Shown here: positions 1,081 through 50,385 of the stretch, piece after piece | Layout of the letters: every line of letters starts with the position of its first letter | How positions within the stretch are numbered: the stretch's first letter is position 1 | Source: an uncultured Acidobacteriota bacterium | GTDB taxonomy: Bacteria > Acidobacteriota > Vicinamibacteria > Vicinamibacterales > CAVVIG01 | Assembly (NCBI GenBank): GCA_963840225.1 | Contig: CAWIYH010000004.1 | Location: 30,383 to 94,382 of the forward strand | Reading direction: 5' to 3' | DNA: 64,000 nt | Made by a program: the position numbers and the translations under genes | Notes under the pieces: generated by a model | Databases searched by the model: none | Told to the model about the DNA's origin: nothing | The model's input: only the letters and a program-made list of their open reading frames with translations

Positions 1081-3921
1081 TTACCAGCTGATCTTGGCGG
1101 CCAGCTCGCCCTGGGTGCCCGGCCGCGCGGTCTGAATCGAGCCGAAGTTGGGCGACAGGGCGTTCGTCACCCGGCCGCCGCCGTACTGCGCCTGCAGGTT
1201 GAGCGTGTTGAACAGGTTGAATGCCTGGCCGATGATCTCGACTCGCGCCGGGCCCAGCTCGATGGTCTTGCTGGCGCGGAAATCGAAGATGTTGATGCGC
1301 GAGCTGTCGATCTGCGAGGAGGTGACGGCCGCGAGCCCGTTGCCCGCGCGCCAGGCGTTGACCGCGGCCAGGTCGAGGTCGCGGCTCCCCGCGTTGCGGG
1401 TCGTTCCTGGCACCAGGTCGGTGTTGAAGCCGTCGCCGTTCAGGTCCCTGCCGGCGGTCGCCGTCCAGGGGAGCTCGGACCGGAGCGTCCAGACGGCGCC
1501 GAGCGTCACGCCCCAGGGGCCGAGGAACGCGCCGCTCGCCACCAGCGCCTGCCGCCGCTCGCCGTTAGACGGCCCCTGGTCCAGTCCGGGATTCAGCGCG
1601 TCGATGAAGCGCCCGAGCGGGGCGTTGTCGTTGCTGTGATCGAACGTGTAGGACAGGAGGAACTGCGTGCGGTGGCTGAAGTGCTTGTCCAGCTTCACGT
1701 ACAGCGCCTTGTATTTCACGTCGCCGGTCGACTGGTACTGATCGACGCGGCCGAAGGTCGGATTCGGCCGCAGCCCGGTGGCGGAGTCGCGCGGGTTGAT
1801 GTCGCGAATCTTCCGATCCTCGGTGACGTGGCTGTACACGGCATCCACGTGAAGGGCCAGATCGGCGGTCAGCTTCTGCGAGAGGCCCGCGCTGAACTGG
1901 TCGGACGCCGGCTGCTGGTAGTCGTTGGCGAGCACGGTGATGTTCGCCGGGCGCGAGACGACGAACGAGCTCGGGTCGCGACCGCCGTACGGGTCGGGGT
2001 ACGAGGGGTTGCTGATGTTGACACTGAACTGCTGGTAGTTCCGGAATTCGTTGAGGGCGCCGAGGATGCGCGTGTGGCCGTAGTAGCGGCCGTAGCCGCC
2101 GCGCACCACCGAGTCGCCGTCGCCGCGGATGTCCCAGGCGAAACCGGTGCGCGGGCCGAAGTTGTTGCTGTCGCCGCGCTTCGACACGTCGATGTAGGGG
2201 ATGGTCACCGGGAAGATCGACGGGTCGAGGTCCTCGTTGCAGCAGCCGTACAGCCGCTCCCACCGCAGGCCCACGTTGAGCGTCAGGTTGGGCCGCGCCT
2301 TCCAGTCGTCCTGCACGAACACGACGCCGTACTTCGTGGTGCGCGGCGTATGAATCGGCGGCAGGCTGGCCGAGAAGGTCGTGGCGCCGGTCAGCGCGGC
2401 GATCGAGGCCGGATCGCTCGGGTTGAAGGGCTGGTCCTGCGAGAAGGTGAACGTTCCGAGGGGATTGCCGGTGTTCTCCTCGAGGTACGGCATGTAGTTG
2501 TACTCGCCGCCGAACTTGATGTCGTGCGAGGCGTGGGTGATGTTGTAGGTGTCTCTCACCTCCCATCGGCTCTCGGGGCCGATCTCGTCGAAGCTGCTGC
2601 CGTAGGAGAGCGACGGGAAGTCGTAGGTCGGGCTCAGCCGGTCGATGCGGGTGGCAGAGAAGTTGCCGACGTCGGTCCAGATCGAGGTGCCGCTCGGGGC
2701 GATGTAGTAGCCGCCGCGCGCGTACTGGAACCGGAAGTCGTTGAGCTGACTCGACCCCTGGATCCACGTGTGGCCGACGACGATGCTCTTGCGGGGCGTC
2801 TTCTGATCGAAGCCGGCGCTGGTCGCCGTGGTCCCGCCACAGCCGCCGCACGTCGACAGCTCGTCCTCCTGCGCGTATCGAGCAAACAGGCTCTGGTCGT
2901 TGCTGATCTGCCAGTCGCCGCGGCCGACGTACAGGTAGCGATGGGACGGCTTGGCGAAGGTCCCCTCCACCGACGAGTAGAACTGCGGCAGCCCCGTGTG
3001 GACGGTGTAGAACTCGTTGATCTTCGTGTCCTCGAGCGACGCGAAAAAGTGCATCCGGTCGCGGATGATCGGACCGCCGAGCGCGCCGCCGAACTGATGC
3101 CGGCGGAATGCCGGCTTCTCGGTCTGGAACGGTTCGAGCGCGTTCAGCGACTTGTCGCGGAAGTACTCGAACGCGTCGCCGTGGAACGCGTTGCCGCCCG
3201 ACTTGGTCACCACCTCCACGATGCCGCCCGTGGCGAGCCCGAACTGCGCCGGCGCCTGGACGTTGCTGACCTTGAACTCCTGCACGGCGTCCTGCGGGAG
3301 GTCCTGCCGGGGCTCGCCGTCCTCGTCCCAGTTGTTGATCATGCCGTCGACGATGTTGCCGGTGCTGTTGAAGGTCATCGACCCGCCGACGTTCACGGTG
3401 GCGAAGAAGGATCTCGTCGCGTCGAGGCTCGTCCCCGGCATGAGCAGCGCGAGCGAGAGATACTGGCGGGAGTTGACCGGCAGCGTCTGTATCTGAATGG
3501 GTGTGACCACGCCGGCGACCTCGGACTTCGTCGTATCCACCACCGGGGCCTGCCCGGTCACCGTCACCGACTCCGAGAGGCTCCTGATCCGCATCGTGAA
3601 GTCCTGCCTCAGCGACAACCCGATGGTGATCGTCAGGTCCTTGACCGTTTCCGCCGTGAATCCCTGCAGGTTAGCGGTCACCGAGTAGGTACCGGGCAGC
3701 AGCGCCGGAAAGCGGTAAGCGCCGTCGGATGCCGTGACGGTCGTGCGGGCCACGCCGGACGTCTGATTGCGCATCGTGACCGTGACGCCGGGCAGGACTC
3801 CCCCTTGTTCGTCCCGGATGACTCCTTCAATCAGCCCGTTGCCGCCCTGGGCGAGCAGCGCGGAGCTCATCGCAAGGGTGATGAAGAGAGCGAGCACGTG
3901 AACGCGTGCGGGACACTGCAT
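1081..3921 (-). CDS. TonB-dependent outer-membrane receptor with N-terminal carboxypeptidase-regulatory-like domain
   Basis: 946-aa ORF with a signal peptide (LALFITLAMSSALLAQG). It has a CarboxypepD_reg-like module (GVIRDEQGGVLPGVTVTMRNQTSGVARTTVTASDGAYRFPALLPGTYSVTANLQGF). A long beta-rich barrel ends in the aromatic terminus ...LAAKISW. Confidence 0.85.
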   Translation of the reverse strand: MQCPARVHVLALFITLAMSSALLAQGGNGLIEGVIRDEQGGVLPGVTVTMRNQTSGVARTTVTASDGAYRFPALLPGTYSVTANLQGFTAETVKDLTITIGLSLRQDFTMRIRSLSESVTVTGQAPVVDTTKSEVAGVVTPIQIQTLPVNSRQYLSLALLMPGTSLDATRSFFATVNVGGSMTFNSTGNIVDGMINNWDEDGEPRQDLPQDAVQEFKVSNVQAPAQFGLATGGIVEVVTKSGGNAFHGDAFEYFRDKSLNALEPFQTEKPAFRRHQFGGALGGPIIRDRMHFFASLEDTKINEFYTVHTGLPQFYSSVEGTFAKPSHRYLYVGRGDWQISNDQSLFARYAQEDELSTCGGCGGTTATSAGFDQKTPRKSIVVGHTWIQGSSQLNDFRFQYARGGYYIAPSGTSIWTDVGNFSATRIDRLSPTYDFPSLSYGSSFDEIGPESRWEVRDTYNITHASHDIKFGGEYNYMPYLEENTGNPLGTFTFSQDQPFNPSDPASIAALTGATTFSASLPPIHTPRTTKYGVVFVQDDWKARPNLTLNVGLRWERLYGCCNEDLDPSIFPVTIPYIDVSKRGDSNNFGPRTGFAWDIRGDGDSVVRGGYGRYYGHTRILGALNEFRNYQQFSVNISNPSYPDPYGGRDPSSFVVSRPANITVLANDYQQPASDQFSAGLSQKLTADLALHVDAVYSHVTEDRKIRDINPRDSATGLRPNPTFGRVDQYQSTGDVKYKALYVKLDKHFSHRTQFLLSYTFDHSNDNAPLGRFIDALNPGLDQGPSNGERRQALVASGAFLGPWGVTLGAVWTLRSELPWTATAGRDLNGDGFNTDLVPGTTRNAGSRDLDLAAVNAWRAGNGLAAVTSSQIDSSRINIFDFRASKTIELGPARVEIIGQAFNLFNTLNLQAQYGGGRVTNALSPNFGSIQTARPGTQGELAAKISW

Positions 3922-4221
3922 GGGACCCTCCGTCGGCAGCTGAAGGAGAGAGGCTCTCGACGGCGATCCGCCGTGCGCGAGGGGACCGGCCAGACACGGC
4001 CGAGAGCATCCGGCTCGCTGGAGCGTGCATGGTGTACCTCGGGTCGATTCGCCCTGTCAACGCGACCGCCCGACGCTCGCCCTGCGGGGGCGCCGTTTCG
4101 GCTGCCACGTCTGCGCCGCAGCGCCGTTCGGGTCACGACACCTGGCAGGTGACCGCGCCAAACGGAGTCGTCGCGCGAACCGGTTACCGAATCGTCACCA
4201 GAGTACGCCACAATCGCTATT

Positions 4222-4572
4222 GTGTTGATTCGTTCCTGGTCTCTCGACGACATCACGATACTCGACGTCGACGGCCGGCTCGGTGTCGAGAACGGCCCGG
4301 CGCTGCGCGACGCGGTGACCCGTGCGGTCGCCGGCGGCGCGCGGCGGATCGTGCTCAACCTCTCGGGCGTCACCGCGCTCGACGCCGCTGCCGTGGGCGA
4401 GCTGGCCCGGGCGTTCACGTTCGTCCGCCAGGCCGCGGGTGAGCTGAAGCTGGTCGTCCGCTCCGATGCCGTGCGCGAGATTCTTGTGCGCACGCGGCTG
4501 CTGGGCATCGTCCCGACCTACCAGACTGAGGCTGCCGCGATCGCGAATTTCGCCGAGCTGCTCAAGGTCTGA
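4222..4572 (+). CDS. STAS-domain anti-sigma-factor antagonist-like protein
   Basis: 116 aa with a GTG start. ILDVDGRLGVENGPALRDAV...RRIVLNLSGVTALDAAAVGELARAF is the typical SpoIIAA/STAS layout. Confidence 0.75.
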   Translation: MLIRSWSLDDITILDVDGRLGVENGPALRDAVTRAVAGGARRIVLNLSGVTALDAAAVGELARAFTFVRQAAGELKLVVRSDAVREILVRTRLLGIVPTYQTEAAAIANFAELLKV

Positions 4573-17510: not shown

Positions 17511-18047
17511 GTGCGACTCCAACCTGCGCAGGCTCGCGGCTTCGCTCTGATCGACCTGGTGTTCGTCATAGGCGTGATCGGAGTGCTTTCGGCGATGGCG
17601 CTGCCGCGCCTGATCACGGCACGTCAGGCCGCCGGTTCGGCTTCCGCGATCGGCTCGCTCCGCACCCTGAACAGTTCGCAGCTCACGTTCGCGTTGACGT
17701 GCGGCTCCGGCTTTTACGCGCCGGATCTGGTGACGCTCGGTACGCCGCCGCCAGGCAGCAACGAGCCGTTCGTCACCAGCGGGCTTGGCGACGCCAACGT
17801 CGTGACACGATCCGGATACGTCATCCAACTGGAGGCGACCGCGTTCAGCGGAGCGCCTCCGAGCTGCAACGGACTCGGAGGCGGGATGACCGGCCAGGGG
17901 TTCAGGGCCGCCGCCGATCCGGTCGAGCCGAACACCACGCGCCATTTCGCCACGAACGCGAACACCCTGATCTTCGAGAACGATTCGACGTTGTATGCCG
18001 TCATGCCCGAGATCGGCGAGCCGCCGATCGGACACCTCCTCCGCTAA
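17511..18047 (+). CDS. type IV pilin-like protein (prepilin-type N-terminal cleavage/methylation domain)
   Basis: From GTG 17511 (or 17508) behind AAGGAG, a short basic leader MRLQPAQARG precedes FALIDLVFVIGVIGVLSAMALP (G/F cleavage site, acidic residue at +5 is D). The track ORF starts at 17484. Confidence 0.65.
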   Translation: MRLQPAQARGFALIDLVFVIGVIGVLSAMALPRLITARQAAGSASAIGSLRTLNSSQLTFALTCGSGFYAPDLVTLGTPPPGSNEPFVTSGLGDANVVTRSGYVIQLEATAFSGAPPSCNGLGGGMTGQGFRAAADPVEPNTTRHFATNANTLIFENDSTLYAVMPEIGEPPIGHLLR

Positions 18048-37195: not shown

Positions 37196-38668
37196 CTAGA
37201 AGGTCTGGACGTGGCGGACGGCGCGCGCGACCACGAAGACGCGCAGGTTGTTGCTCTTCGGATCGGCCGGGAACAGGATGAAGCCGTCGGCATCGGGGCG
37301 GTAGCTCAAGGTCGTGCCGACGAGCACTTCGTCGTCGAGGAAGGTCACCACGACGCGGCGGGCGGCCTCGTTGCGCTCGAAGGTCTTCGCCTCGACGTGC
37401 GACGGCTCGCCGTCGAAGTCGCGAACGAAGAAGACCGCCTTGAGCTGTCCGATCGGCACCGAGATGCGGGCGATGTCGGGCGCGTGAAGGGTCGGCACGA
37501 GATGGAGGTACGGCTTGGTGGCGAGAAAGTCGCTCGTGTATCCCTTCAACAGCCGGCCGTCGGCGTACCGCACGACGATCTTGCAGGCGCCCTGGGGCGC
37601 GGTCCGTTCCGGGGCCTCGACGCCCAGAGCGGCGCTCGACGGCGGGTCGAGATCGAGCACGAGCGCGACCAGGTGGGCCGTCGCCTTCAGGAGGTGGAAG
37701 TGTCCCTCGGCGGGTCTCATGTCTCGGCCGAAGTCGACGACGAGCGTGGCCGGGAGCCGATGGGGCGACGCCGGCAGGTCGAAGTGGACGGACCGTGGAG
37801 TCCGGGCGGCCGGGTCGGTCCGGTCGGCGATGCGGATGCTCGCGCCGAGCCAGCGCGACAGGCGCCGACCGATCCGGTCGCAGAGAATCGCCGACGACTC
37901 GCCGCGCTCCACGCCGAGCGTCAGGTCCCGCAGGAGCGACGCCAGCTCGTTGGCGAACGCCGCGTCGGACCGCAGGGCGGCCGGTAGCTCGAGCAGCATG
38001 GCCGTCGCCGCCAGCACCGCGTCGCCGACCTCAGTGACGCCGCCGCTGGCGGCCGCGTCAGGCCGCCCGCGGCTTTCCAGGGCGCGCGTGAACCGCTTGA
38101 TGGCGAACGCCAGCCGCGCGTGCTCGTCGGCGGCCGGCGGACACGATTGCGCATCGTGGGTCGTGGCGAGCTCGGGGAAGTCGACCGCGCTCTTGAACGC
38201 GAGCGCCCCGCGGTAGGTCGCCACCGGGGCGAGCGACGCGATCTGGCAGCGGAGCACCTGGGACGCGACCGCCAGTTCGGCGTCGAGCCCCTCGATCTGT
38301 ACAACGATGGTGGAGCCCGGATGAAGCGTGACGCGGCTCTCGACCTGCGCGCCGCCGGCCGACAGATCGACGAGCGACACCGGAGGCCCGTACTTGAGCC
38401 TCACGGCCTTCAGCCACGGCAAATCGCCCGGCCCCACCCGGACGTACGCGCGTCGGTCGGAGCCGGACGACAGGTCGGGGCCTTCGTCAGCGGGTGCGAG
38501 TGCCGCCGTGCCGCCAGAAGCGAATTTCAATGCCGAACCCACATGGACACACCACGAGCCGGTTTCTGTACACAAGATGCGCACCGCTTCCGCCCTGATC
38601 GCTAAGAGATTGTTGGGGAAGCGCTTACGGTCGGCGGCCGCGCGGATGTCGCCGGAGGCGTGTGCCAC
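37196..38668 (-). CDS. PilZ-domain protein with a large uncharacterised C-terminal region
   Basis: 490 aa. PilZ-like RRAYVRV...VSLVDLSAGGAQVES. The C-terminal ~130 aa (KIVVRYADGRLLKGYTSDF...LKAVFFVRDFDG...FILFPADPKSNNLRVFV) looks like a distinct conserved module. Confidence 0.65.
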   Translation of the reverse strand: MAHASGDIRAAADRKRFPNNLLAIRAEAVRILCTETGSWCVHVGSALKFASGGTAALAPADEGPDLSSGSDRRAYVRVGPGDLPWLKAVRLKYGPPVSLVDLSAGGAQVESRVTLHPGSTIVVQIEGLDAELAVASQVLRCQIASLAPVATYRGALAFKSAVDFPELATTHDAQSCPPAADEHARLAFAIKRFTRALESRGRPDAAASGGVTEVGDAVLAATAMLLELPAALRSDAAFANELASLLRDLTLGVERGESSAILCDRIGRRLSRWLGASIRIADRTDPAARTPRSVHFDLPASPHRLPATLVVDFGRDMRPAEGHFHLLKATAHLVALVLDLDPPSSAALGVEAPERTAPQGACKIVVRYADGRLLKGYTSDFLATKPYLHLVPTLHAPDIARISVPIGQLKAVFFVRDFDGEPSHVEAKTFERNEAARRVVVTFLDDEVLVGTTLSYRPDADGFILFPADPKSNNLRVFVVARAVRHVQTF

Positions 38669-39221: not shown

Positions 39222-39307
39222 GCCGGGGTGGCGGAACTGGCAGACGCACAGGACTTAAAATCCTGGGTCCCGCAAGGGGCGTGTGGGTTCGATGCCCGCC
39301 CCCGGCA
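39222..39307 (+). tRNA. tRNA-Leu (anticodon TAA)
   Basis: Hand-folded. Acceptor GCCGGGG/CCCCGGC plus discriminator A. Anticodon arm CAGGA-CTTAAAA-TCCTG. Long variable arm (GTCCC-GCAA-GGGGC). T arm GTGGG-TTCGATG-CCCGC. Length 86 nt. Confidence 0.9.
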
Positions 39308-39441
39308 CTTTCTCAGGTGATTTGAGGCGTTCTCAGGGCGAGTGCGGACGGCCTGCGATAGGCCGCCATTGACTCTGGGTGAGCCAGCCTGCGGCCTGCC
39401 TCGAGAACCGTGTACTTCGACGCCAAGACCAAAGGGCTGGC
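39285..39441 (+). repeat. direct repeat copy 1 (157 bp: tRNA-Leu 3' end plus 134 bp downstream)
   Basis: Identical to 46574-46730 except for one position (39354 T versus 46643 C). Confidence 0.95.
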
Positions 39442-39708
39442 GCTCCGCGTGTCGCCGCGGGGCTCCAGGACCTGGGCGTTCGTCTATCGGAGCGGTGGAC
39501 GGCCGCCACGGCGGCTCGAGGGTTCAGCGAGGACGTCATCGGTCGCGCTCTGAACCACGCGCGCTATACGGTCACGGCCCGGCACTCCATCAAGCACGGG
39601 TACCAAGTCGAGGTCCGGCACGCGCTCATGACCTGGGACGGGGACTTGGCGGATATCGTCGCCGGCCGCGAAGTGAGCCCGCGCGCGGTCCTGCCGTTCC
39701 GGCGATAG
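39365..39708 (+). pseudogene. P4-type tyrosine integrase, internally deleted (Arm/DUF4102 N-terminus joined out of frame to the extreme C-terminus)
   Basis: The frame from GTG 39410 gives VYFDAKTKGLALRVSPRGSRTWAFVYRSGGRP (DUF4102-like). A second frame gives GFSEDVIGRALNHARYTVTARHSIKHGYQVEVRHALMTWDGDLADIV (integrase C-terminal helix pattern). The ~300-aa catalytic core is missing. Confidence 0.65.
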
Positions 39709-40121
39709 ATGTCGTTTCCCGGCGCGCGGCGTGGCGCGATGCGTAACGCGCCCGGCGCTTCGGATGTGGTCGAGGCAAGTGATGCCGTCCCTTACGCCAG
39801 CAGCGCTCTTTGCTGCACGCGAGGCGATCATGCTCTCGGCACGAGGGCTGGCTCACTCGGAGCCAACCAGGAGGCGACGATCAGCTCGTGACCTGAGGCA
39901 CGTGGGTTAGAGTCCCAGCACGTGGTGGAAATTCGATAGCGGCCCCTCGGTAGACAAACGAAGCGGCCATCGCGCATCTTTCCGTGAGTTCTCTCTGGCG
40001 GGAGACGAAAGCACGGAGGTGTTGAGACGATGGCCCCGCGCGCCGCCAATTTCGATCGTAATCGCGCCGTCTTCTCGGCAGAGCCGGGCATTGTCGGCAT
40101 CCGCCGTCGGGGTCAGGAGCG

Positions 40122-40924: not shown

Positions 40925-42406
40925 ATGCTCAGGATGGATCAAGTGCATGTTGTCCGGCACAAAGTGCTGGTGGAGGGGCGGACGCAGCGGGCGGTCGCCC
41001 GTGAGTTGGGGATCGCGCGCGTCACCGTCCGTAAGTACTTGCATCAGGCGGTCCCGAGTCGAAAGCCGGCGACGCCGCGACCGCGGCCGGTCTGGGATGC
41101 GGTGGCCGATCGGGTGCAGGCGCTGCTGGCCGATTCCGTGCGATGGACGGCCGGCAAACAGCGGCTGACCGCCACACGGCTGCACGAGATGCTGCTGGCG
41201 GAAGGGAAACGCGTGGGCGTGACGGTCGTCAAAGACGCGGTCGCCGAGTGGAAGCGACAGCGGCGAGAGGTGTTCGTCCCGCTGACGTATCGGCCGGGTG
41301 ATCTCGCCGAGGTCGATTTCTTCGAGGTCCTGGTCGACATCGACGGCACGCGGCGCAAAGCGTGGCTCTTCCTGATGCGGCTGATGTACTCCGGTCGCGA
41401 CTTCGCCTGGATTTACGAGCGCCAAGATCAAATCAGCTTTCTCGACGGGCACGTCCGCGCCTTTGCGCATTTCGATAGCGTGCCCGCGCGCGTCGCGTAC
41501 GATAATCTGCGCGCCGCGGTCGTGCGGATTCTGGTTGGCGGCGCGCGCACGCTGACGCCGCGGTTCGAGGCGCTGACCTCGCATTACCTGCTCGAAGCGT
41601 GCTTCTGTCGGCCCGGCGAAGGCCACGACAAAGGCGGCGTCGAGTCGCGGGGCAAAGCCATCCGGCAGCAAGCGCTCGTCCCCATTCCGAGCGGGCCGAC
41701 GCTCGCGGCGATTAATGCGACGCTGCTGGCGCAGATGGATGCGCGGCTCGACACGACCCGGGATGCGGCCGGTCGCACGATCGGCGACCGCTTCACCGAG
41801 GAGCAGCGCCAGTGTCGGCGGGCGCCCACGCCGTTCGCGCCGGAGGCCACGACGTTCGCCACCGTGTCGCCGCGCGCGCTGGTCCGGCTCGAAGGCGCGG
41901 TCTACTCGGTGTGGACGCGCTGGGTCGGCCTCGATCTCGTCGTGCGCCTGGGCGCCACGATGGTGACCCTGGTGGGACGCGACGGCGTCTGCGTGACGCA
42001 TCCGCGCAAACGCTTCGGCGAGCGCTCGATTGATTATCGACACTACCTGGCGGAGCTCGCGCGCAAGCCGCAGGCGGTGCGCCAGGTGCTGCCGGATCTC
42101 CTGTGGGATCTCGGGGATCCATTTCCGGCGGTCTGGGCGCAGCTGCACGGCGCGCACGGGCCGCGGGAGGCGGCGCGGCACTTCGCCAAAGTCCTCGGCC
42201 AGCTGGAGACACACGGCGCCGCCGTGGTCGTGCCCGCGCTGCGCGTCGCGCTCGCGACTGGGGCGCCGCTGCTGCTCGCGCTCACACCGGCCCGATCGCC
42301 CGTCCGTGTCGCGCTTGACGCGCTGCCGGCGCCCCTCCGTGAGATCGACGTCGCGAGCGGCTGCGCCGCCGACTATGACGCTTGGCTCCTGGGCGGCGTC
42401 GCATGA
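40925..42406 (+). CDS. istA: IS21-family transposase IstA
   Basis: 493 aa. N-terminal HTH (GRTQRAVARELGIARVTVRKYL). DDE region (GDLAEVDFFEVLVDIDG...MYSGRDFAWIYERQDQISFLDGHVRAFAHFDSVPARVAYDNL...CRPGEGHDKGGVES). Confidence 0.9.
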   Translation: MLRMDQVHVVRHKVLVEGRTQRAVARELGIARVTVRKYLHQAVPSRKPATPRPRPVWDAVADRVQALLADSVRWTAGKQRLTATRLHEMLLAEGKRVGVTVVKDAVAEWKRQRREVFVPLTYRPGDLAEVDFFEVLVDIDGTRRKAWLFLMRLMYSGRDFAWIYERQDQISFLDGHVRAFAHFDSVPARVAYDNLRAAVVRILVGGARTLTPRFEALTSHYLLEACFCRPGEGHDKGGVESRGKAIRQQALVPIPSGPTLAAINATLLAQMDARLDTTRDAAGRTIGDRFTEEQRQCRRAPTPFAPEATTFATVSPRALVRLEGAVYSVWTRWVGLDLVVRLGATMVTLVGRDGVCVTHPRKRFGERSIDYRHYLAELARKPQAVRQVLPDLLWDLGDPFPAVWAQLHGAHGPREAARHFAKVLGQLETHGAAVVVPALRVALATGAPLLLALTPARSPVRVALDALPAPLREIDVASGCAADYDAWLLGGVA

Positions 42407-43170
42407 GCACCGCCACCCTCGCCCGCGATCTCGTCGTCGCGCAGACGCGGGCGTTGAAGTTGCCGGGCGTGGCGCGCACCTTCGAAGCCCTCGCTCGCCA
42501 GGCGCGCGACGCGCACTGGCCACACGAGGATTACCTGCACGAGGTGCTCACGGCGGAGCAGGCCTCGCGGCACGAGTCCGTGATCCGTCAGCGGCTTCGC
42601 GAGGCGCGCTTCCCCGAGGTGAAGACCCTCGACACCTTTGACTTCACGACGGCCGACGGCGTCAGCGCGACGCAGATTCATACGCTGGCACGTGGCGAGT
42701 GGGTCACGGCGCCGGAGAATCTGATCTTGGCCGGCCCGATCGGGACCGGCAAGACGCACTTGGCGATCGCGCTCGGCGTGGAAGCCACGAAGCAGAAACG
42801 ACGGGTGCTCTTCACCCGGGCCGCCGACCTCGTGCGTCAGCTGATTGAAGCCCGCGATGCCCGCGAGCTGACCCGGCTGCAGCAGCGGCTCCTGCGCGTC
42901 GACGTCCTGATCGTCGACGAGCTCGGGTTTGTGCCGTTCGACCGCATCGGCGGCGAGCTGCTCTTCAATCTGATCACCGATCGGTACGAGCGGCGGGCGA
43001 CGGTCGTGACCACCAATCTGGCGTTTGCTGAATGGGTGACGGTGTTCGCCGGCGACGAAAAACTGACGACCGCGCTTCTCGATCGCTTGGCGCATCACGC
43101 CACCGTGCTGACGACGAAAGGCAAAAGCTATCGCATGCGAAAGCGCCGCGGCCGCGAGGAACCCTCGTGA
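42403..43170 (+). CDS. istB: IS21-family helper ATPase IstB
   Basis: ATGA overlap with istA. Walker A is LAGPIGTGKTHLA and Walker B is LLIVDELGF; it also has TTNLAFAEW. Confidence 0.9.
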   Translation: MSTATLARDLVVAQTRALKLPGVARTFEALARQARDAHWPHEDYLHEVLTAEQASRHESVIRQRLREARFPEVKTLDTFDFTTADGVSATQIHTLARGEWVTAPENLILAGPIGTGKTHLAIALGVEATKQKRRVLFTRAADLVRQLIEARDARELTRLQQRLLRVDVLIVDELGFVPFDRIGGELLFNLITDRYERRATVVTTNLAFAEWVTVFAGDEKLTTALLDRLAHHATVLTTKGKSYRMRKRRGREEPS

Positions 43171-44453: not shown

Positions 44454-44743
44454 CGGACGGCCGGCCGTGGCGATAGCCAGGCAGGCGCCGCAAGGCAACC
44501 AGGTCCGCAGTGGGCGCGTGAGGCGCGCGATCGCGCCTGCAGCGAGCGACCGAGAGGGCTAATCTGCGTTGTGTCAGAGGAGAGAACAAGGGCTGTGTCA
44601 GAGAGAGAACGGGGCAGGGAAGGGGCGACCAGGTCCGAGAATGCGCGTCATGTTCGCTAATGCGGCCCATCCTCGATCCTCCTATCCTCTATCCTCTCCT
44701 CTCGACAATGTGGCCGGGCGCTGCAAGTCGTTCGTCTGAGCCG

Positions 44744-45473
44744 CTAGACTGCCAGCCGCCGCAGCCCGTCGGCAATCCGCCGACATGCGGACAGGATCCG
44801 GTAGTCCTCCGCATACCACGCCGACAGGTTCTCGATGGCCTGTGGCTCGAGATGCCGGTCGAGGCCGGCCGGAGCCCGGTGTGCGGCCATCTCGTCGGTC
44901 GGAAGCGCGACATCCGGACATCCGAGTACCCGTTTGAGCGCGTCGAAGTCTTCGGTCAGCCGTTCCTGGAATCCGATGAACAACAGACCGCTGCGGCGCC
45001 GTTCGAGGGTACTCGACGGAGCGGAGCCAGTGTGCGAATCCGTCCCTGACGTGCTTGATGCTGCGCATGCCGTCCATTGCCGCCAGACGGACGTCGGGAT
45101 CCGGCGAAGACAACGACAAGGCCAGATCGTTGGGCGTGTCGAATCGTCCGAACGCCATCGCCTCCTCGGGGCTCCACGGAAAATGGTACCGCGGCGCGCC
45201 CTGGCGCTTCCTGCTGTGGAAGCCGCTGATGAACCGGGACATCGGATCCCGCAGAAAGAAGACCGCGTATTCGCTGGCAGGCACGTCCGCCAGCGTGAAC
45301 CTGTGCGGATGCACGGCCAGGGTGTAGTGCGCCCCCTGGGGCCGATGCTCCAGTGCCGTTTTGATCGCGGTGCCGCCGGTCTTGCCGATGTGCAACAGAT
45401 GAGCCGTGGGTGGGCGCCACGGTGCACGGCGGCTGAACCTGTTCCAGATGTTCGCGTTCATGAGGAGCCTCAC
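44744..45473 (-). pseudogene. sulfotransferase-family gene, frameshifted
   Basis: The N-terminal frame (from 45473) gives LLHIGKTGGTAIKTAL...FFLRDPMSRFISGFHSR. The C-terminal frame (to 44744) gives LLFIGFQERLTEDFDALKRVLGCP...LSAWYAEDYRIL. The switch is at about 44975-45010. Confidence 0.65.
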
Positions 45474-45484
45474 TCGCCGCCCTG

Positions 45485-45733
45485 CTAGTGCGTCAGAAAC
45501 CGGTCAAGCACGGCGATATCGTGCTCGCGCGTGCCGACGAAGCGGAGGGCGGCAACCCAGGTCGCGATCGAGTGCTCCTGGCCCGACGGCTCCACGCGCA
45601 CAACCTCCACGCGCGTCGAGAACACGTCGTGGTCGAGCACGACGTCGAACCGGGCGGACTGACCGCGATCCAGGCGGCTGTTCGTCTTGACGAGGGCGCC
45701 GCTGGATCCGATATCGACCAGCCACGCGCTCAC
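45485..45733 (-). CDS. short PilZ-like protein (possibly N-terminally truncated)
   Basis: 82 aa from a GTG start. WLVDIGSSGALVKT...ARFDVVLD...RVEVVRVE fits a PilZ beta-barrel pattern. The RxxxR part is not present downstream of a start codon. Confidence 0.4.
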   Translation of the reverse strand: MSAWLVDIGSSGALVKTNSRLDRGQSARFDVVLDHDVFSTRVEVVRVEPSGQEHSIATWVAALRFVGTREHDIAVLDRFLTH

Positions 45734-45781: not shown

Positions 45782-46337
45782 TCAAATCGCTTCCCCTGAC
45801 GCCGATCGATCACCGGATTCGTCCCAGGCAGCATCGAATTGGTGTGGCGGCGTGCAAGTTCGTAACCAACGCGGAAGGTGCGCGGGCACGAACGACTCCC
45901 GGCCTTTCACTGTCGCGTAGTTTCTCTTTCCCGCACAGCCGATGCCGGCACCGGACGAACCGGGGAGGGCCCGACTGGTGCCGGCATGCGACAACAAAAG
46001 TCGACGTGCCGCACCACTTCGACGGCTGCCGGGCTTCGCGGCTGAGACGGGCCCTCGGGCCACAGTGGTGTCAGACGAGAGAGCCTCGGTCGTGACGAGT
46101 TCCACCGACCGCCCGCAAGCGCGCTTCGAGCAGCTCCGACAATGCCATGAAGCGTGCGTACGACTTGGCGCCGGGTGCGAACTGAACGAGCATGTCGACG
46201 TCGCTGTCGGCGCGCGGCTCCCCGCGGAGCACCGATCCGAAGAGCGCCAGCCGCATCACGCCAAGCGCGCGAATGTCCTATTCGCATTCGGCCAGGCGCT
46301 CGGCGGCCTGCCCGTAGCTCAGCACTGGCGTCGGCAT
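45782..46337 (-). pseudogene. decayed MNT-type nucleotidyltransferase plus possible HEPN (DUF86-like) remnant
   Basis: MPTPVLSYGQAAERLAECE*DIRALGVMRLALFGSVLRGEPRADSDVDMLVQFAPG carries an in-frame TAG. The family continuation VELVTTEAL is in a different frame. Further downstream, RTCTPPHQF fits a loose Rx4-6H motif. Confidence 0.45.
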
Positions 46338-46540: not shown

Positions 46541-46596
46541 GACTTAGAATTCTGTGGATCGCAAGATCCGTGAGGGTTCGATGCCCGCCCCCGGCA
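46541..46596 (+). other. 3' half of a second, diverged tRNA-Leu-like sequence (anticodon loop to 3' end); not a complete tRNA
   Basis: GACTTAGAATTCTG-TGGATCGCAAGATCCGTGA-GGGTTCGATGCCCGCCCCCGGCA. It is collinear with the tRNA-Leu and about 70 percent identical upstream of the repeat, with compensatory changes keeping the variable-arm helix (GGATC/GATCC). There is no acceptor or D-arm 5' half. Confidence 0.6.
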
Positions 46597-46730
46597 CTTT
46601 CTCAGGTGATTTGAGGCGTTCTCAGGGCGAGTGCGGACGGCCCGCGATAGGCCGCCATTGACTCTGGGTGAGCCAGCCTGCGGCCTGCCTCGAGAACCGT
46701 GTACTTCGACGCCAAGACCAAAGGGCTGGC
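46574..46730 (+). repeat. direct repeat copy 2 (157 bp)
   Basis: See copy 1. It includes the first 11 codons of the integrase frame and ends abruptly at 46730. Confidence 0.95.
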
Positions 46731-47143
46731 TCGCCGGCGGCGCCGTCGCGCCGCCAGCCTCACCCGTGACGACATGCATTCTGGCCCGGGCTGTCCCCTT
46801 CCTCCCGGCTTACATCCTCGTCCGACCGACGCTCGACAACGCGAGTCGGCTCCTCGCGGCGCTCGAGGCCTTCGGGTTTCCCGTCACCGAGCTTAGTCCC
46901 CACGCGATCGTAGATCGTCGTCGGATGCTGCAGATGGGCGTGCCGCCGGTGCAGATCCACGTGATGAGCGCGATCAGCGGGGTCGCGTGGGATGATGCGT
47001 GGTCGGATCGCGTCAGCGGCCCCCTCGGGAGCCACAGCGTTCACTTCTTGGGCCGCGAGACGTGCCTGCGTAACAAGCGGACGGCCGGTCGTCCCAAGGA
47101 CCTCGCCGACATCGACGCGCTCGAGCCCGGTCGCGACGTGTAG
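46731..47143 (+). pseudogene. nucleotidyltransferase-fold protein (DUF6036-like), 5'-truncated at the repeat junction
   Basis: ILVRPTLDNASRLLAALEAFGFPVTELSPHAIVDRRRMLQMGVPPVQIHVMSAISGVAWDDAWSDRV...FLGRETCLRNKRTAGRPKDLADIDALE matches a family that normally begins about 35 aa earlier with GGxAV...DxD. No own start codon is present. Confidence 0.5.
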
Positions 47144-47253: not shown

Positions 47254-48297
47254 TCACGAACCAGACGTGCGCGGTCTGTTGTGGTCCGTCACGCCGACGG
47301 CTTCGAATACCGGACGCAGCGCCTGGCGATACGACGCGACGAGGTCGTGATAGCCGAGCCTGACTACTGAAAACGGAAGCGGTGCAAAGTGCGCCGTCCA
47401 TGCCCCGGAAAACCGGATGAATCCCGCGGTCGCTGTGAGCGGCGTCTGCCGATAGTCGACGATTGTTCTCAGTGCGCTACAGCGCGGTATGTCCGGCAGC
47501 GACACATTGACCGTCCGACGCACGTCCTCCGACAATCGGCGGTAAGCGTTCAACGAAAGATTCATCACGAGTAGCACCAGCCGTTCCGGCTGCAGCGTTT
47601 CGAACGCCTGCCGGCATTCCCACTCGAGGCCGGATCCCGATCCGACCCTGACCACAACGAGCGCCGCGGTCCGCATTTGGTCCTGAACGACCGCTCGCCA
47701 CGCCTGGTCGGACGCATACATGCGGGCCGCTCCGGGGACCGGGAGCGGCTCGCCCGGCTGGCCGATTGCGACCAGCGTGCCAATGGGGCGCAGGGCCTCT
47801 GCCAGATCTTCTTCGTCGGTCGACAGCCCGGTTTGCAGTACTTTGCCCGCGCGTGACGTATCCGAACCGAACGCCCGGAGGTACAGCACCGTCGGGCCCG
47901 ATCGCTGATCCGCGCGCGTCGCCCGCACCGAGCGCCTTGCCTGGAGCCGGCGTCCTTTGAAATGAAGGAGGATGCCCACGATCATCAGGAACGCACCGAG
48001 CAAAGACGCTGGGTTCTCTTCGACATCGCCAAGGACGCCGTACAGAATCGCGCCCACCACGATCGCCGCAATTCCCGCGACCTTCAAGCCGGTGCCAGAC
48101 ACCTGCGTACGCCTCCAGCCGTCGACCCCTCGCAGGCGCCTGCGCGGCTCCCACGCGAGGTCTGCTACACCGGGCCAGCGCAGTCCTGCAGGCTGCGCAC
48201 CGAACGAACCGCTGCGGTCTGAAACCCAGCCACAGATCCGATTCGGTTGGAACATTCCACGGCCGGGCTGACTGACTTCGTTACTGGCAAGTGTCAC
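47254..48297 (-). CDS. uncharacterised two-TM membrane protein with a C-terminal alpha/beta (TIR-like?) domain
   Basis: 347 aa from GTG 48297 (or the ATG at 48255). TM helices are LKVAGIAAIVVGAILYGVLG and LLGAFLMIVGILLHF. These are followed by TVLYLRAFGSDTS...LVAIGQPGEPLPVPGAARMYASDQAWRAVVQDQMRTAALVVVRVGSGSGLEWECRQAFETLQPERLVLLV. Confidence 0.6.
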   Translation of the reverse strand: MTLASNEVSQPGRGMFQPNRICGWVSDRSGSFGAQPAGLRWPGVADLAWEPRRRLRGVDGWRRTQVSGTGLKVAGIAAIVVGAILYGVLGDVEENPASLLGAFLMIVGILLHFKGRRLQARRSVRATRADQRSGPTVLYLRAFGSDTSRAGKVLQTGLSTDEEDLAEALRPIGTLVAIGQPGEPLPVPGAARMYASDQAWRAVVQDQMRTAALVVVRVGSGSGLEWECRQAFETLQPERLVLLVMNLSLNAYRRLSEDVRRTVNVSLPDIPRCSALRTIVDYRQTPLTATAGFIRFSGAWTAHFAPLPFSVVRLGYHDLVASYRQALRPVFEAVGVTDHNRPRTSGS

Positions 48298-48841
48298 CCA
48301 TCCATTTGGCCGTGAACGTCGACTTCATCGTCATGGGATGATCGCCGGCGCCCATCGACATGTCGAACGTGCCCTTGACGCTTTCGGTCGAGAGGACGTC
48401 GACGTGCATCTGGCCGGTGCTCGGCATCGAGCCGTTGCACGAGAACTTCACGTCCTGCACCGACGCGGTGCTCTTGACGACCGTGTAGTCGCAGTTCTCG
48501 TCGTTCTGCTGCAGCTTGAAGAGCGGCTGCGACAGGTCCTTTTTCGTCACGCAGTACGTGTCGACGCTCTGTTTCACGTTCGCGGCCGAACTGGCCATCA
48601 CGGCTGCCATCTGCGCCTTCATTTCCGGCGTCAGCTTACTCGTGTCGACGCCCATGCTCGACAGATCCGGGGCGCCGGACATCTGGGTGGACGAGGTCAC
48701 CTGCCACGAGCCGGCCTTGACGTTCGGCGCCTGGACGGGCGCCATGGTCTTCTGCTGCGCGTGAACGAGGCTGACGGCGAACAGTCCGATCACAGGAACG
48801 GTCACGGCAGACAGACGAAGCAATTGCTGCAGACGTGTCAT
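48281..48841 (-). CDS. secreted DUF3617-like protein
   Basis: 186 aa with signal peptide LSAVTVPVIGLFAVSLVHAQQ. KAGSWQVTSS...YCVTKKD...NCDYTVV...FSCNG...DTCQ (four or five conserved-looking Cys). Visibly lower GC than its neighbours. Confidence 0.6.
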   Translation of the reverse strand: MTRLQQLLRLSAVTVPVIGLFAVSLVHAQQKTMAPVQAPNVKAGSWQVTSSTQMSGAPDLSSMGVDTSKLTPEMKAQMAAVMASSAANVKQSVDTYCVTKKDLSQPLFKLQQNDENCDYTVVKSTASVQDVKFSCNGSMPSTGQMHVDVLSTESVKGTFDMSMGAGDHPMTMKSTFTAKWMGDTCQ

Positions 48842-49356
48842 AGAACCCTCGGAAAGAATGGCGCGCGCTCGTGACGCGCGGAAGCCGGTGGACGCCAGGC
48901 AATTCTACCCCAGCGCCGGACCAGCCGCCTGGCCGACGTTGGGCTGACGTGGCGACGAAACTCGTTGCGGCCCGCTGCTAAGTCTGTGTATGGCTGTTGT
49001 CTGGAACGAAACTGTACCTACAGTGCCGCATCGAATCACCGCACCGCCTGGGGCCTGGAACGAACGCACCTCGGACTCGGTGACATCGGCGACACGCTCG
49101 GCACAGACCTGTGCGGAGACGGGAGCCAACCGTTCGACGCAGTGCCCGTGAACCAGCTGCGCCTCTTCGGACCCGGCGGAGTAGCGTCAAACCGCGAGTC
49201 GGGGATCATCCTCGCCAGCGTTCATGAGCACCGACATCGTTTCGATCCACACGATGCGCTGGTGTGGTGGCGGCACAGACTGCTAGTTTAGAATCCAGGT
49301 GCCGGCGAGGTCGTGTACGGATCGGCGCGCCGCTCGGCGCGCCGCGGGAGGCTGAG

Positions 49357-50385
49357 ATGAACGAATACATCGACGTCACCTTTCGCAAGCCCGATGGCCG
49401 CCGCCTGCGGGTCGCCCGCCAGACCCCCAACGGCCTCGAGTTCGACGAGCGCGATCCGATCGAGCGCACGATCGGCCTCCAGCTGAACGGCCGCAGCGAG
49501 GCCACCCGCCAGCGCATGCGCCGCATCGCGCAGGTCAAGGGCTGGGGCCTCGAACAGTTCAAGCTCAATGTCTCGGTCGAGGACGGCAACCTGGTCCTGC
49601 GCGGCGCGGATCCCGACGCGCTGCCCGAAGGCTTCTACAACCTGCGCGTCGAAGTCGAAGAGGCGCGCACGCGGCAGCCGCGCACGAGCGTCGAGATCGA
49701 GCAGGACGGCCACGCGGAGATCGATGTCGTCGTCGTCGAGGACACCCGCGACGTCGCCGTGGATCTCGAGGAGTGCGATCCCGACATTCGACGCGTGCTC
49801 GACGCCTCGACGATCGACGGACAGGATGCCGCGACGTGGCTCGCCTCGCCGCTGTGGCGTCCCACCCGCAAGGCCTGTCTGCTCAACCTGCTGGCGTCGC
49901 TCCGGTCGCGCCCGAAGCTGTCGGAGTCGCTCATCGGCCACGTCGAGCACGTCTTCGCCGTCTTCAACGACCGCGCCTACATGCGCGTGGACCGGCGCCT
50001 GCTGCCCGACGTCGAGGATCTCGCAAAGGCCGACGACCTGCCGTTCTACCGCGAAGGCAGGCCGCTCGCGCCGATTCACGCGGGCCTGACGAGCACCCTC
50101 CCCGAGCCGCCCGACGTCAAGGCGCGGTTCCAGGGCCTCCTCAGCTTCCGGGGCGAAGGGAAGCCGTCGCTCCAGATGGTCGTTGCCGTGCCGCCCGTCG
50201 ATCTGCCGCACACCTATGCGGAGTTCGATCTCGACGCGGGCAATCCGCTCCAGGACGTCGTCGGCTTCGCCGTGCACATGGGCGAGCTCCTCAGCGGCAG
50301 GCCGACCAATCACCTCGACCTCCGTGAGCGCCTCGCGAAGACGAAGGCGAAGAGCTTCCTGTACTACACCGTCTTCGCCGCGTAG
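49357..50385 (+). CDS. hypothetical protein (342 aa), no recognisable domain
   Basis: ATG at 49357 behind GGGAGG. The composition is balanced and coding-like (MNEYIDVTFRKPDGRRLRVARQTPNGLEFDERDPIERT...YAEFDLDAGNPLQDVVGFAVHMGELL...). Confidence 0.6.
   Translation: MNEYIDVTFRKPDGRRLRVARQTPNGLEFDERDPIERTIGLQLNGRSEATRQRMRRIAQVKGWGLEQFKLNVSVEDGNLVLRGADPDALPEGFYNLRVEVEEARTRQPRTSVEIEQDGHAEIDVVVVEDTRDVAVDLEECDPDIRRVLDASTIDGQDAATWLASPLWRPTRKACLLNLLASLRSRPKLSESLIGHVEHVFAVFNDRAYMRVDRRLLPDVEDLAKADDLPFYREGRPLAPIHAGLTSTLPEPPDVKARFQGLLSFRGEGKPSLQMVVAVPPVDLPHTYAEFDLDAGNPLQDVVGFAVHMGELLSGRPTNHLDLRERLAKTKAKSFLYYTVFAA

Follow-up and report, generated by a model that had tools for sequence, protein, structure and literature searches.

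TIR domains have central roles in animal, plant and bacterial immunity, and TIR-like families described in recent work proved to be NADases or signal generators. DUF4062 (Swarozyc, TEP1) is a distant TIR-like family with an NADase activity that depends on the catalytic Glu. It carries auxiliary sensing domains and is activated by oligomerisation (bioRxiv 10.64898/2026.05.01.722283). The transmembrane (TM) effectors of Thoeris include type II ThsA (TM-Macro), ThsF/DUF2270, ThsG/DUF6650+TM and the '3TM' and '4TM SLOG' candidates (bioRxiv 10.64898/2025.12.03.692087). In this study, a 64-kb stretch of DNA from an uncultured Acidobacteriota bacterium (contig CAWIYH010000004.1, hereafter the window) was analysed around one minus-strand gene, called gene B here. 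An earlier note on this DNA had joined gene B, as the downstream gene, with an upstream gene for a secreted DUF3617-like protein into a candidate membrane-associated system. All coordinates are positions in the window unless a locus of a relative is named.

We tentatively propose that gene B is an orphan, minimal member of an undescribed family of membrane-bound TIR-like proteins, which may act as NAD+ or nucleotide enzymes through self-association in the membrane. We give this reading a probability of about 0.42. The gene structure, membrane topology, family size, architectures, linkage to TIR genes and profile-level similarity to TIR were established in this study.

Gene model and domain architecture of gene B

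The maximal open reading frame (ORF) of gene B encodes 347 aa and is over-extended; the true product has 282 aa. The database protein P0001, which is identical to the gene B product, has this length, and in the alignments all homologues begin at the position equivalent to the GTG at 48102. A GGAGG motif precedes this GTG, and the positional GC1/2/3 of the 65-codon extension is flat (0.69/0.63/0.66), unlike the coding sequence of this genome. The start was therefore placed at GTG 48102. The two ORFs given in the earlier note, 47254-48297 (-) and 48281-48841 (-), are both present. Their overlap at 48281-48297 is an artefact of the over-long ORF and vanishes with the corrected start, so that the supposed 17-nt overlap with the DUF3617 gene becomes a distance of 178 nt.

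The GC content at third codon positions (GC3) was 0.75 in gene B, 0.88 in the DUF3617 gene, 0.91 in the P-type ATPase gene, 0.91 in the phosphoketolase gene and 0.84 in IS21. With 0.75 against 0.88, gene B is compositionally foreign and the DUF3617 gene is host-like. Gene B is best explained as a lone, minimal member of its family that arrived by horizontal transfer. The patchy distribution of the family and the foreign codon usage count in favour of this.

AlphaFold2 (AF2) modelled the full-length protein with a predicted local distance difference test (pLDDT) of 88 and a predicted template modelling score (pTM) of 0.85, and the domain alone with a pLDDT of 85. The model and the hydropathy profile agree with the earlier description of two TM helices followed by a domain of alternating strands and helices. 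The motifs VLYLRAFGSD, IGQPGEPLPVPGAARMY and VVVRVGSGSGLEWECRQA...RLVLLV described there were also found in the translation. The secondary-structure order is b-a-a-b-(b)-a-b-a-b-a, which is compatible with a flavodoxin-like fold. The second AF2 helix (33-65) runs on into a basic cytoplasmic helix. The domain was predicted to be cytoplasmic because a basic stretch follows the second TM helix and the loop between the two helices is acidic. In two relatives, P0112 and the protein at locus L027, exactly two TM helices separate a genuine N-terminal TIR_2 domain from the family domain that follows. Exactly two helices between the domains place both of them in the cytoplasm, which confirms the topology independently.

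Among the 194 family proteins, the commonest plan starts with two (sometimes four) TM helices, continues with the domain and a further TM helix, and ends in a C-terminal extension. Thirty of the proteins share the plan of gene B, which has two TM helices and the domain and nothing after it. Across the family, the TM helices number from 0 to 5 while the domain is nearly invariant, which suggests that the helices serve as anchors for a functional domain. The C-terminal extensions are hypervariable and, by topology, extracytoplasmic. A TM2 domain occurs in 23 of 64 long members. The other extensions include TPR, Sel1, ankyrin, BNR-type beta-propeller, FGE-sulfatase and DUF4429, and many have no Pfam match. 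This combination of a conserved domain with variable modules (FGE-sulfatase, TPR, Sel1) parallels the architecture of TIR_2 proteins.

Family size, distribution and conservation

Gene B had no significant match in Pfam, PADLOC or NCBIfam. None of these libraries holds a model for its family, in line with the earlier description of the system as undescribed. Against PDB sequences, phmmer and a profile search returned nothing but TM-segment or Nudix noise. A word-indexed search with the gene B product gave 51 clusters. In species-representative genomes, 193 family loci were confirmed, which belong to Acidobacteriota, Burkholderiales, Verrucomicrobiota, Myxococcota/Desulfobacterota, Actinomycetota, Bacteroidota, Planctomycetota, Chloroflexota and others. 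The exhaustive profile search found 9,913 representatives (50% identity clusters) at E ≤ 1e-3 and 2,670 at E ≤ 1e-30. The spread across phyla was patchy, and several genomes carried paralogues. No phage-encoded homologue was found in the phage collection searched, and the plasmid search gave only five weak Streptomyces/Embleya matches. A 505-aa member is encoded on a Streptomyces linear plasmid (L089, 7290-8807; NZ_CP108736.1, WP_331737268.1) under the RefSeq name 'transferase', a name that no Pfam or NCBIfam model supports.

The conserved residues of the domain are Y74, L75, R76, F78, D81, E97, G108, G114, P116, G117, E118, L120, P121, G124, A125, R127, Y129, W135, L148, W161, E162 and F231. 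Six of them (G108, P116, G124, W135, W161 and E162) were invariant across 144 diverse representatives. A further 22 positions were at least 90% conserved in the same set, including Y74, L75, R76, F78, D81, E97, E118, R127 and Y129. E162 was invariant in the alignments of 37, 64 and 144 sequences.

Profile similarity to TIR domains

The family domain was compared with TIR profiles by hhalign. The profile of 37 family sequences matched a profile of TIR seeds and TIR ORFs from the loci (19 sequences) with a probability of 23% (P = 9e-4). With 265 family sequences, the probability was 43% (P = 2.5e-4). The TIR profile was enlarged to 51 sequences with TIR_2 homologues and the Thoeris TIR domains of Table S1 of bioRxiv 10.64898/2025.12.03.692087, which gave 67% (P = 5e-5). 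After gappy columns of this profile were trimmed, the match reached 83% (P = 8.6e-6, score 37.9, 90 columns). The probability therefore climbed step by step as the profiles diversified. The final alignment is in register from alphaA to betaD, and W135 falls on the conserved Trp of alphaB. E162 aligned with the conserved catalytic Glu of the TIR profile in every run. The GAxRxY segment was handled as an insertion in the BB-loop region.

All controls scored lower. The reversed TIR profile scored 11.1, 100 block-shuffled TIR profiles had a maximum of 27.3 and a median of 14.2, and 28 unrelated families from the same loci had a maximum of 20.8. CheY-like receivers (a shallow profile of 3 sequences) scored 16.2, and short-chain dehydrogenase/reductase (SDR) Rossmann proteins (10 sequences, also shallow) scored 12.3. 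The 83% match and the position of the WE glutamate on the TIR catalytic Glu favour the TIR-like reading of the earlier note. By this profile comparison, the family domain appears to be a very divergent TIR-like relative, and its membership in the wider TIR superfamily is likely but unproven.

Genomic neighbourhoods and linkage to TIR genes

Two genes on each side of the family gene were collected from 44 non-redundant loci, which gave 148 flanking genes. TIR_2 was the commonest Pfam family among them (6 matches), followed by RyR (3 matches), and the PADLOC models ThsB and SAVED-TIR also matched flanking genes. With an iterated TIR hidden Markov model (HMM), 13 of the 79 loci were found to have TIR ORFs at a distance of up to 8 kb from the family gene, and 7 TIR genes, about half, lay within 1 kb. 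Pfam assigned all ten TIR neighbours that were checked to TIR_2; the TIR domain is N-terminal in them, and the C-terminus varies (protein kinase, FGE-sulfatase, metallophosphatase, CD225-type TM or unknown). The TIR density per 100 kb was 4.65 at 0-1 kb, 1.91 at 1-3 kb, 1.29 at 3-5 kb and 0.34 at 5-8 kb. This 14-fold fall over 8 kb serves as an internal control and indicates tight linkage, not loose co-residence.

At locus L011 (2818-8846), an 832-aa TIR_2 gene has a family paralogue on either side (548 and 295 aa), all on one strand. At L044 (5746-13121), one family gene lies among three TIR_2 genes (483, 675 and 376 aa), one of which has a metallophosphatase domain. TIR genes are directly adjacent to the family gene at L005, L065 and L073. 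The TIR-linked loci include those of three of the closest relatives, L005, L006 and L011 (42-50% identity to the window protein). The neighbourhood check suggested in the earlier note thus found bona fide TIR_2 genes strongly linked or fused to the family. For the window itself, the TIR HMM found no TIR ORF in the 64 kb, and PADLOC gave 0 matches on the window copy and no recognised partner. The argument for a defence role is one from genomic context only.

Close relatives were found beside integrases or insertion sequence (IS) elements at L003, L005 and L086 and beside a DUF1016 nuclease-like gene at L092. Other close relatives lie beside ordinary metabolic genes. The L005 locus (1-20867), which encodes the close homologue P0019, looks like a conflict-system island: besides two TIR_2 genes and a phage-type integrase, it has a CHAT/TPR-S protein and a weak PLD-like fragment.

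At L090, a 149-aa gene similar to nucleoside 2-deoxyribosyltransferase (NDT) lies at 3917-4366, 0.95 kb upstream of a close homologue and on the same strand. The NDT superfamily is sister to TIR, and this class is named 'CMP hydrolase' in type VIII Thoeris. The gene was tried as a bridge between the family and the NDT superfamily and was rejected, as no signal came from this one sequence.

In two marine Rhodobacterales and one Gemmatimonadota, a large same-strand gene precedes the family gene and overlaps it or ends within 80 nt of it (L030, 5169-7694; L042, 5365-7776; L034, 301-1938). At L030, the product of this gene combines a KTN (KefC-like) region with RyR domains. This arrangement may be a separate operonic subtype.

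Proposed mechanism and alternative explanations

For the enzymatic activity, the substrate, the activation by oligomerisation and the biological role, we infer the following model. An N-terminal hairpin of two TM helices tethers a cytoplasmic domain, which is probably a highly divergent TIR-like (flavodoxin-type) domain. Its invariant glutamate E162 aligns with the catalytic Glu of TIR domains, and it has an enlarged and unusually conserved BB-loop-like segment, GxPGExLPxxGAxRxY. As established for TIR NADases and for DUF4062, several copies of the domain may meet, here in the plane of the membrane, and become active. The active domain would then cleave or transform NAD+ or a related nucleotide. 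This reaction may serve a response to conflict or stress, in which canonical TIR_2 proteins would often take part as well. The third TM helix of longer relatives would couple the domain to variable extracytoplasmic modules, which are probably sensors. The window copy has neither such a module nor a TIR neighbour. A bolder version of the model, which we consider rather doubtful, makes the family a new TIR-superfamily branch of bacterial transmembrane receptors. An outside sensor (TPR, Sel1, beta-propeller or FGE-sulfatase) would drive a cytoplasmic NAD+-based TIR-like enzyme, often with adjacent canonical TIRs, and the window gene would be the sensor-less form.

Several results weigh against a membrane-bound TIR-like enzyme. 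The Pfam models TIR, TIR_2, ThsB_TIR and DUF4062 did not match gene B even at E ≤ 1, and the iterated TIR HMM built here never matched the family domain. The hhalign comparators were shallow and included no SLOG or NDT profile, and the first strand motif, YLRxFxxD, lies outside the local alignment. For these reasons, the TIR relationship is regarded as likely, not proven. Foldseek searches of the PDB with the full-length and domain-only models returned no match below 1e-3, and the top 50 contained no TIR. The best matches were generic Rossmann-type proteins with template modelling scores of at most 0.46 (KefC KTN, the CoaBC C-terminal domain, reductases and methyltransferases). In a search of the viral models of BFVD with the domain model, a TIR/WD40 protein and a Cap12-type TIR appeared only at E ~0.02, among methyltransferases and a LOG protein. 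No TIR gene lies nearby in 66 of the 79 loci, the window included, and the TM2-fused clade (Rhizobacter/Caldimonas) occurs in conserved housekeeping synteny. The earlier note would have counted a predicted structure without a TIR/Rossmann-like fold as a refutation. By Foldseek the predicted fold is Rossmannoid, so this refutation did not occur, but TIR is not singled out among the generic Rossmann matches. On these models the structure search is non-specific, and Foldseek neither confirms nor excludes TIR.

A different possibility, which we regard as doubtful, is that the family proteins are Thoeris-like effectors. A SLOG or TIR-like sensor domain would bind a nucleotide from a neighbouring ThsB-like TIR, and the TM hairpin would oligomerise and damage the membrane. 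On this reading, gene B would be an orphan effector whose TIR partner was lost. Loci with one family gene and one to three TIR genes (L005, L006, L044, L065 and L073) resemble Thoeris loci, although the neighbouring TIR proteins are mostly large and multidomain, not of the short ThsB type. Many new Thoeris effectors are TM proteins with unknown domains, a candidate '4TM SLOG' class is known from Streptomyces and Nitrospira, and type IX Thoeris has TIR+SLOG fusions, which makes a TIR fusion compatible with a sensor role (bioRxiv 10.64898/2025.12.03.692087). However, the TIR domains of the '4TM SLOG' class do not resemble those at the family loci, and a search seeded with a Streptomyces TIR of this class (Yirmiya et al.) found nothing. 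LOG and MoCo-carrier proteins (SLOG-class) appeared lower in the full-length Foldseek list (E 0.02-0.1, template modelling score 0.41-0.45), but the PADLOC and Pfam models SLOG, Macro and ThsA gave no match. The variable extracytoplasmic C-terminal modules suit a sensor-enzyme better than a downstream effector, and members differ in their number of TM helices, some having none. The set of more than 20 nearly invariant residues, among them the Glu that aligns with the TIR catalytic residue, is more suggestive of an active site. These points against an effector are not decisive.

It is also conceivable, but we think unlikely, that the family consists of non-immune membrane proteins, such as a regulator or scaffold in envelope or transport functions. 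The Rossmann-like domain would bind a common nucleotide, and the association with TIR would be co-residence. The family has no conserved operon partner, many of its contexts are metabolic or transport genes, and some members are operonic with KTN+RyR proteins. Against this, TIR genes are concentrated right beside the family gene and thin out steeply with distance, and the physical fusions to TIR_2 (P0112 and L027) join the two domains in one protein. The structure searches gave only generic nucleotide-binding folds (KTN, CoaBC, SDR-like), whereas the profile similarity to TIR exceeded all controls. The TM2-fused clade is syntenic among related Burkholderiales and vertically inherited, and the phage collection held no homologue. 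The family as a whole, however, shows a patchy phyletic spread, paralogues in several genomes and hypervariable C-terminal modules, and gene B, with its foreign codon usage, stands beside a tRNA-linked insertion.

DUF3617 gene and setting in the window

The product of the upstream gene matches PF12276 (DUF3617) over the full model 1-106 with E = 9.7e-14 and 52.5 bits, above the cut-off of 24.5. As read from the sequence, the protein has four cysteines and an N-terminus that resembles a signal peptide (MTRLQQLLRLSAVTVPVIGLFAVSLVHA/QQ). The earlier identification as a secreted DUF3617-like protein is thus well founded. The lower GC that had been noted for this gene holds for its overall value of 0.62, which results from amino-acid composition (codon positions 1 and 2). 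Its GC3 is host-like, and gene B is the foreign one of the two.

The earlier note treated the two genes as a pair that forms a two-gene membrane-associated system. They neighbour each other on one strand with no terminator-like site detected in the 178-nt spacer, so their co-transcription in this single genome is possible. One weak sigma-70-like site was found at 48366-48338. However, DUF3617 homologues were found near gene B relatives at 0 of 84 family loci, where phmmer over all ORFs matched the window copy alone. The claimed overlap disappeared with the corrected start, and the codon usage of the two genes differs. The 373-aa and 170-aa ORFs of the window were also considered as partners, and phmmer over the 84 loci found only the window's own copies; DUF3617, the 373-aa ORF and the 170-aa ORF were all rejected in this role. 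All-against-all clustering of the flanking ORFs gave no partner conserved across the family. It gave only lineage-specific synteny, in the Rhizobacter/Caldimonas/Rubrivivax clade and in near-identical metagenomic contigs, and nothing wider. The orientation and spacing of neighbours differ freely among the loci. The DUF3617 gene is an unrelated host neighbour outside any gene B system. As a conserved system, the two-gene model is refuted and has next to no probability in our assessment.

The features of the window are listed in Table 1. The two copies of the 196-nt direct repeat are 93% identical and bracket a 7.3-kb insertion. The gene pair lies just beyond the second copy, as the earlier note had stated with respect to the second island junction. 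Gene B lies about 500 nt past this copy and is convergent with the 170-aa ORF. The 170-aa ORF matches its truncated copy with E = 2e-16 in phmmer. Paralogous copies at both junctions show that the protein-level duplication reaches past the 196-nt DNA repeat. Beyond the gene pair, the genes are ordinary ones (P-type ATPase, phosphoketolase).

Table 1. Coordinates of gene B, its parts and the surrounding features in the window
Feature	Position	Strand	Description
Gene B, true coding sequence	47254-48102	-	282 aa + stop; 2-TM hairpin, then cytoplasmic TIR-like domain (predicted)
Shine-Dalgarno GGAGG	48112-48116	-	9 nt upstream of GTG 48102-48100; read from sequence
Spurious 65-codon N-terminal extension	48103-48297	-	Part of the maximal ORF; really intergenic spacer after DUF3617; covered by no homologue
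TM helix 1	48031-48096	-	Residues 3-24, GTGLKVAGIAAIVVGAILYGVL; AF2 helix 3-24, hydropathy
TM helix 2	47953-48006	-	Residues 33-50, then basic stretch KGRRLQARRSVR; AF2 helix 33-65, hydropathy
Conserved cytoplasmic alpha/beta domain	47293-47895	-	Residues 70-270; alignments, AF2, hhalign
W161-E162 codons	47617-47622	-	Invariant in 144 representatives; E162 aligns with the TIR catalytic glutamate
DUF3617 gene	48281-48841	-	186 aa; signal-peptide-like residues 1-28; 4 Cys; adjoining host gene
tRNA-Leu(taa)	39222-39308		196-nt direct repeat starts inside
Direct repeat copy 1, 196 nt	39252-39447		Begins inside tRNA-Leu
Direct repeat copy 2, 196 nt	46541-46736	+	Distal junction of the 7.3-kb IS21-bearing insertion
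IS21 IstA/IstB pair	40925-43170		Inside the insertion
Weak sulfotransferase-like ORF	44682-45473		Inside the insertion
Small PilZ gene	45485-45733		Inside the insertion
Nucleotidyltransferase fragment	46071-46259		Inside the insertion
170-aa ORF	46631-47143	+	No Pfam match; truncated paralogue at 39342-39746 (+), directly after tRNA-Leu

A gene for a PilZ plus DUF6982 protein lies just before tRNA-Leu at 37196-38668 (-). The 373-aa ORF (49264-50385, +) is divergent from the DUF3617 gene, has a host-like GC3 of 0.89 and looks real. It had no significant match in Pfam, PADLOC or NCBIfam, and its exact sequence was absent from the protein collection. ARAGORN called a tRNA-Ala(ggc) at 17561-17656 (+), which is unusually long at 96 nt. 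The call, in a region where ORF calls overlap, may be a false positive or represent an intron-bearing or odd tRNA.

Comparison with known systems

For the window alone, the result is a modest one: one foreign orphan family gene beside an unrelated DUF3617 gene. The family-level finding is notable and testable, as the family is large (~9,900 clusters), spans many phyla and is absent from Pfam, NCBIfam and PADLOC. A family model would better annotate thousands of 'hypothetical' membrane proteins. If the link to TIR is real, the TIR superfamily extends to the bacterial membrane, where events outside the cell or in the envelope could be coupled to NAD+-based signalling. In the literature, we found no paper describing such a membrane-embedded TIR-like family, although the family may coincide with the '4TM SLOG' or '3TM' candidates of Yirmiya et al.

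Like TIR_2 and ThsB-type TIR domains (Pfam clan STIR), the family domain has alternating beta and alpha elements, with the profile match extending from alphaA to betaD at 83%. Both have an invariant Glu at the catalytic position and a conserved Trp in alphaB. Both also combine a conserved N-terminal domain with variable modules, and TIR_2 is linked and fused to the family. The family differs in several respects. No Pfam TIR model detects it, and Foldseek does not rank TIR first. It has an insertion of 9-10 residues in the BB-loop region that bears the invariant GAxRxY, the motif WE instead of SxWxxxE, and an extra C-terminal beta-hairpin with helices. It is almost always membrane-embedded, with 2-4 TM helices before the domain and usually one after it.

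DUF4062 offers a precedent for a distant TIR relative that acts as a Glu-dependent NADase, and by analogy gene B may have a similar activity. Gene B has no PF13271 match, and DUF4062 proteins are soluble whereas the gene B family is membrane-anchored. The TM effectors of Thoeris are likewise small membrane proteins with a cytoplasmic nucleotide-related domain, and TIR genes are adjacent in some loci. Unlike them, gene B does not match PADLOC ThsA or Pfam Macro, DUF2270 or DUF6650, most family loci have no TIR gene, and relatives carry variable extracytoplasmic modules. From the SLOG superfamily, gene B differs in having no Pfam SLOG match and in its motif RxGxxxGxxWE, compared with the PGGxGTxxE-type loop of SLOG.

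The family also differs from animal Toll-like receptors. The order of parts is reversed, with the TIR-like domain N-terminal and the sensor C-terminal, and an extra N-terminal TM hairpin is present. The sensor parts are not homologous, and the window protein has no outside module. The likeness is in architecture only. Like these receptors, the longer relatives combine a putatively ligand-binding repeat module on the outside with a TM helix and a TIR-like domain in the cytoplasm. If the transmembrane-receptor version of the model is true, the family would be a prokaryotic counterpart of Toll-like receptor logic.

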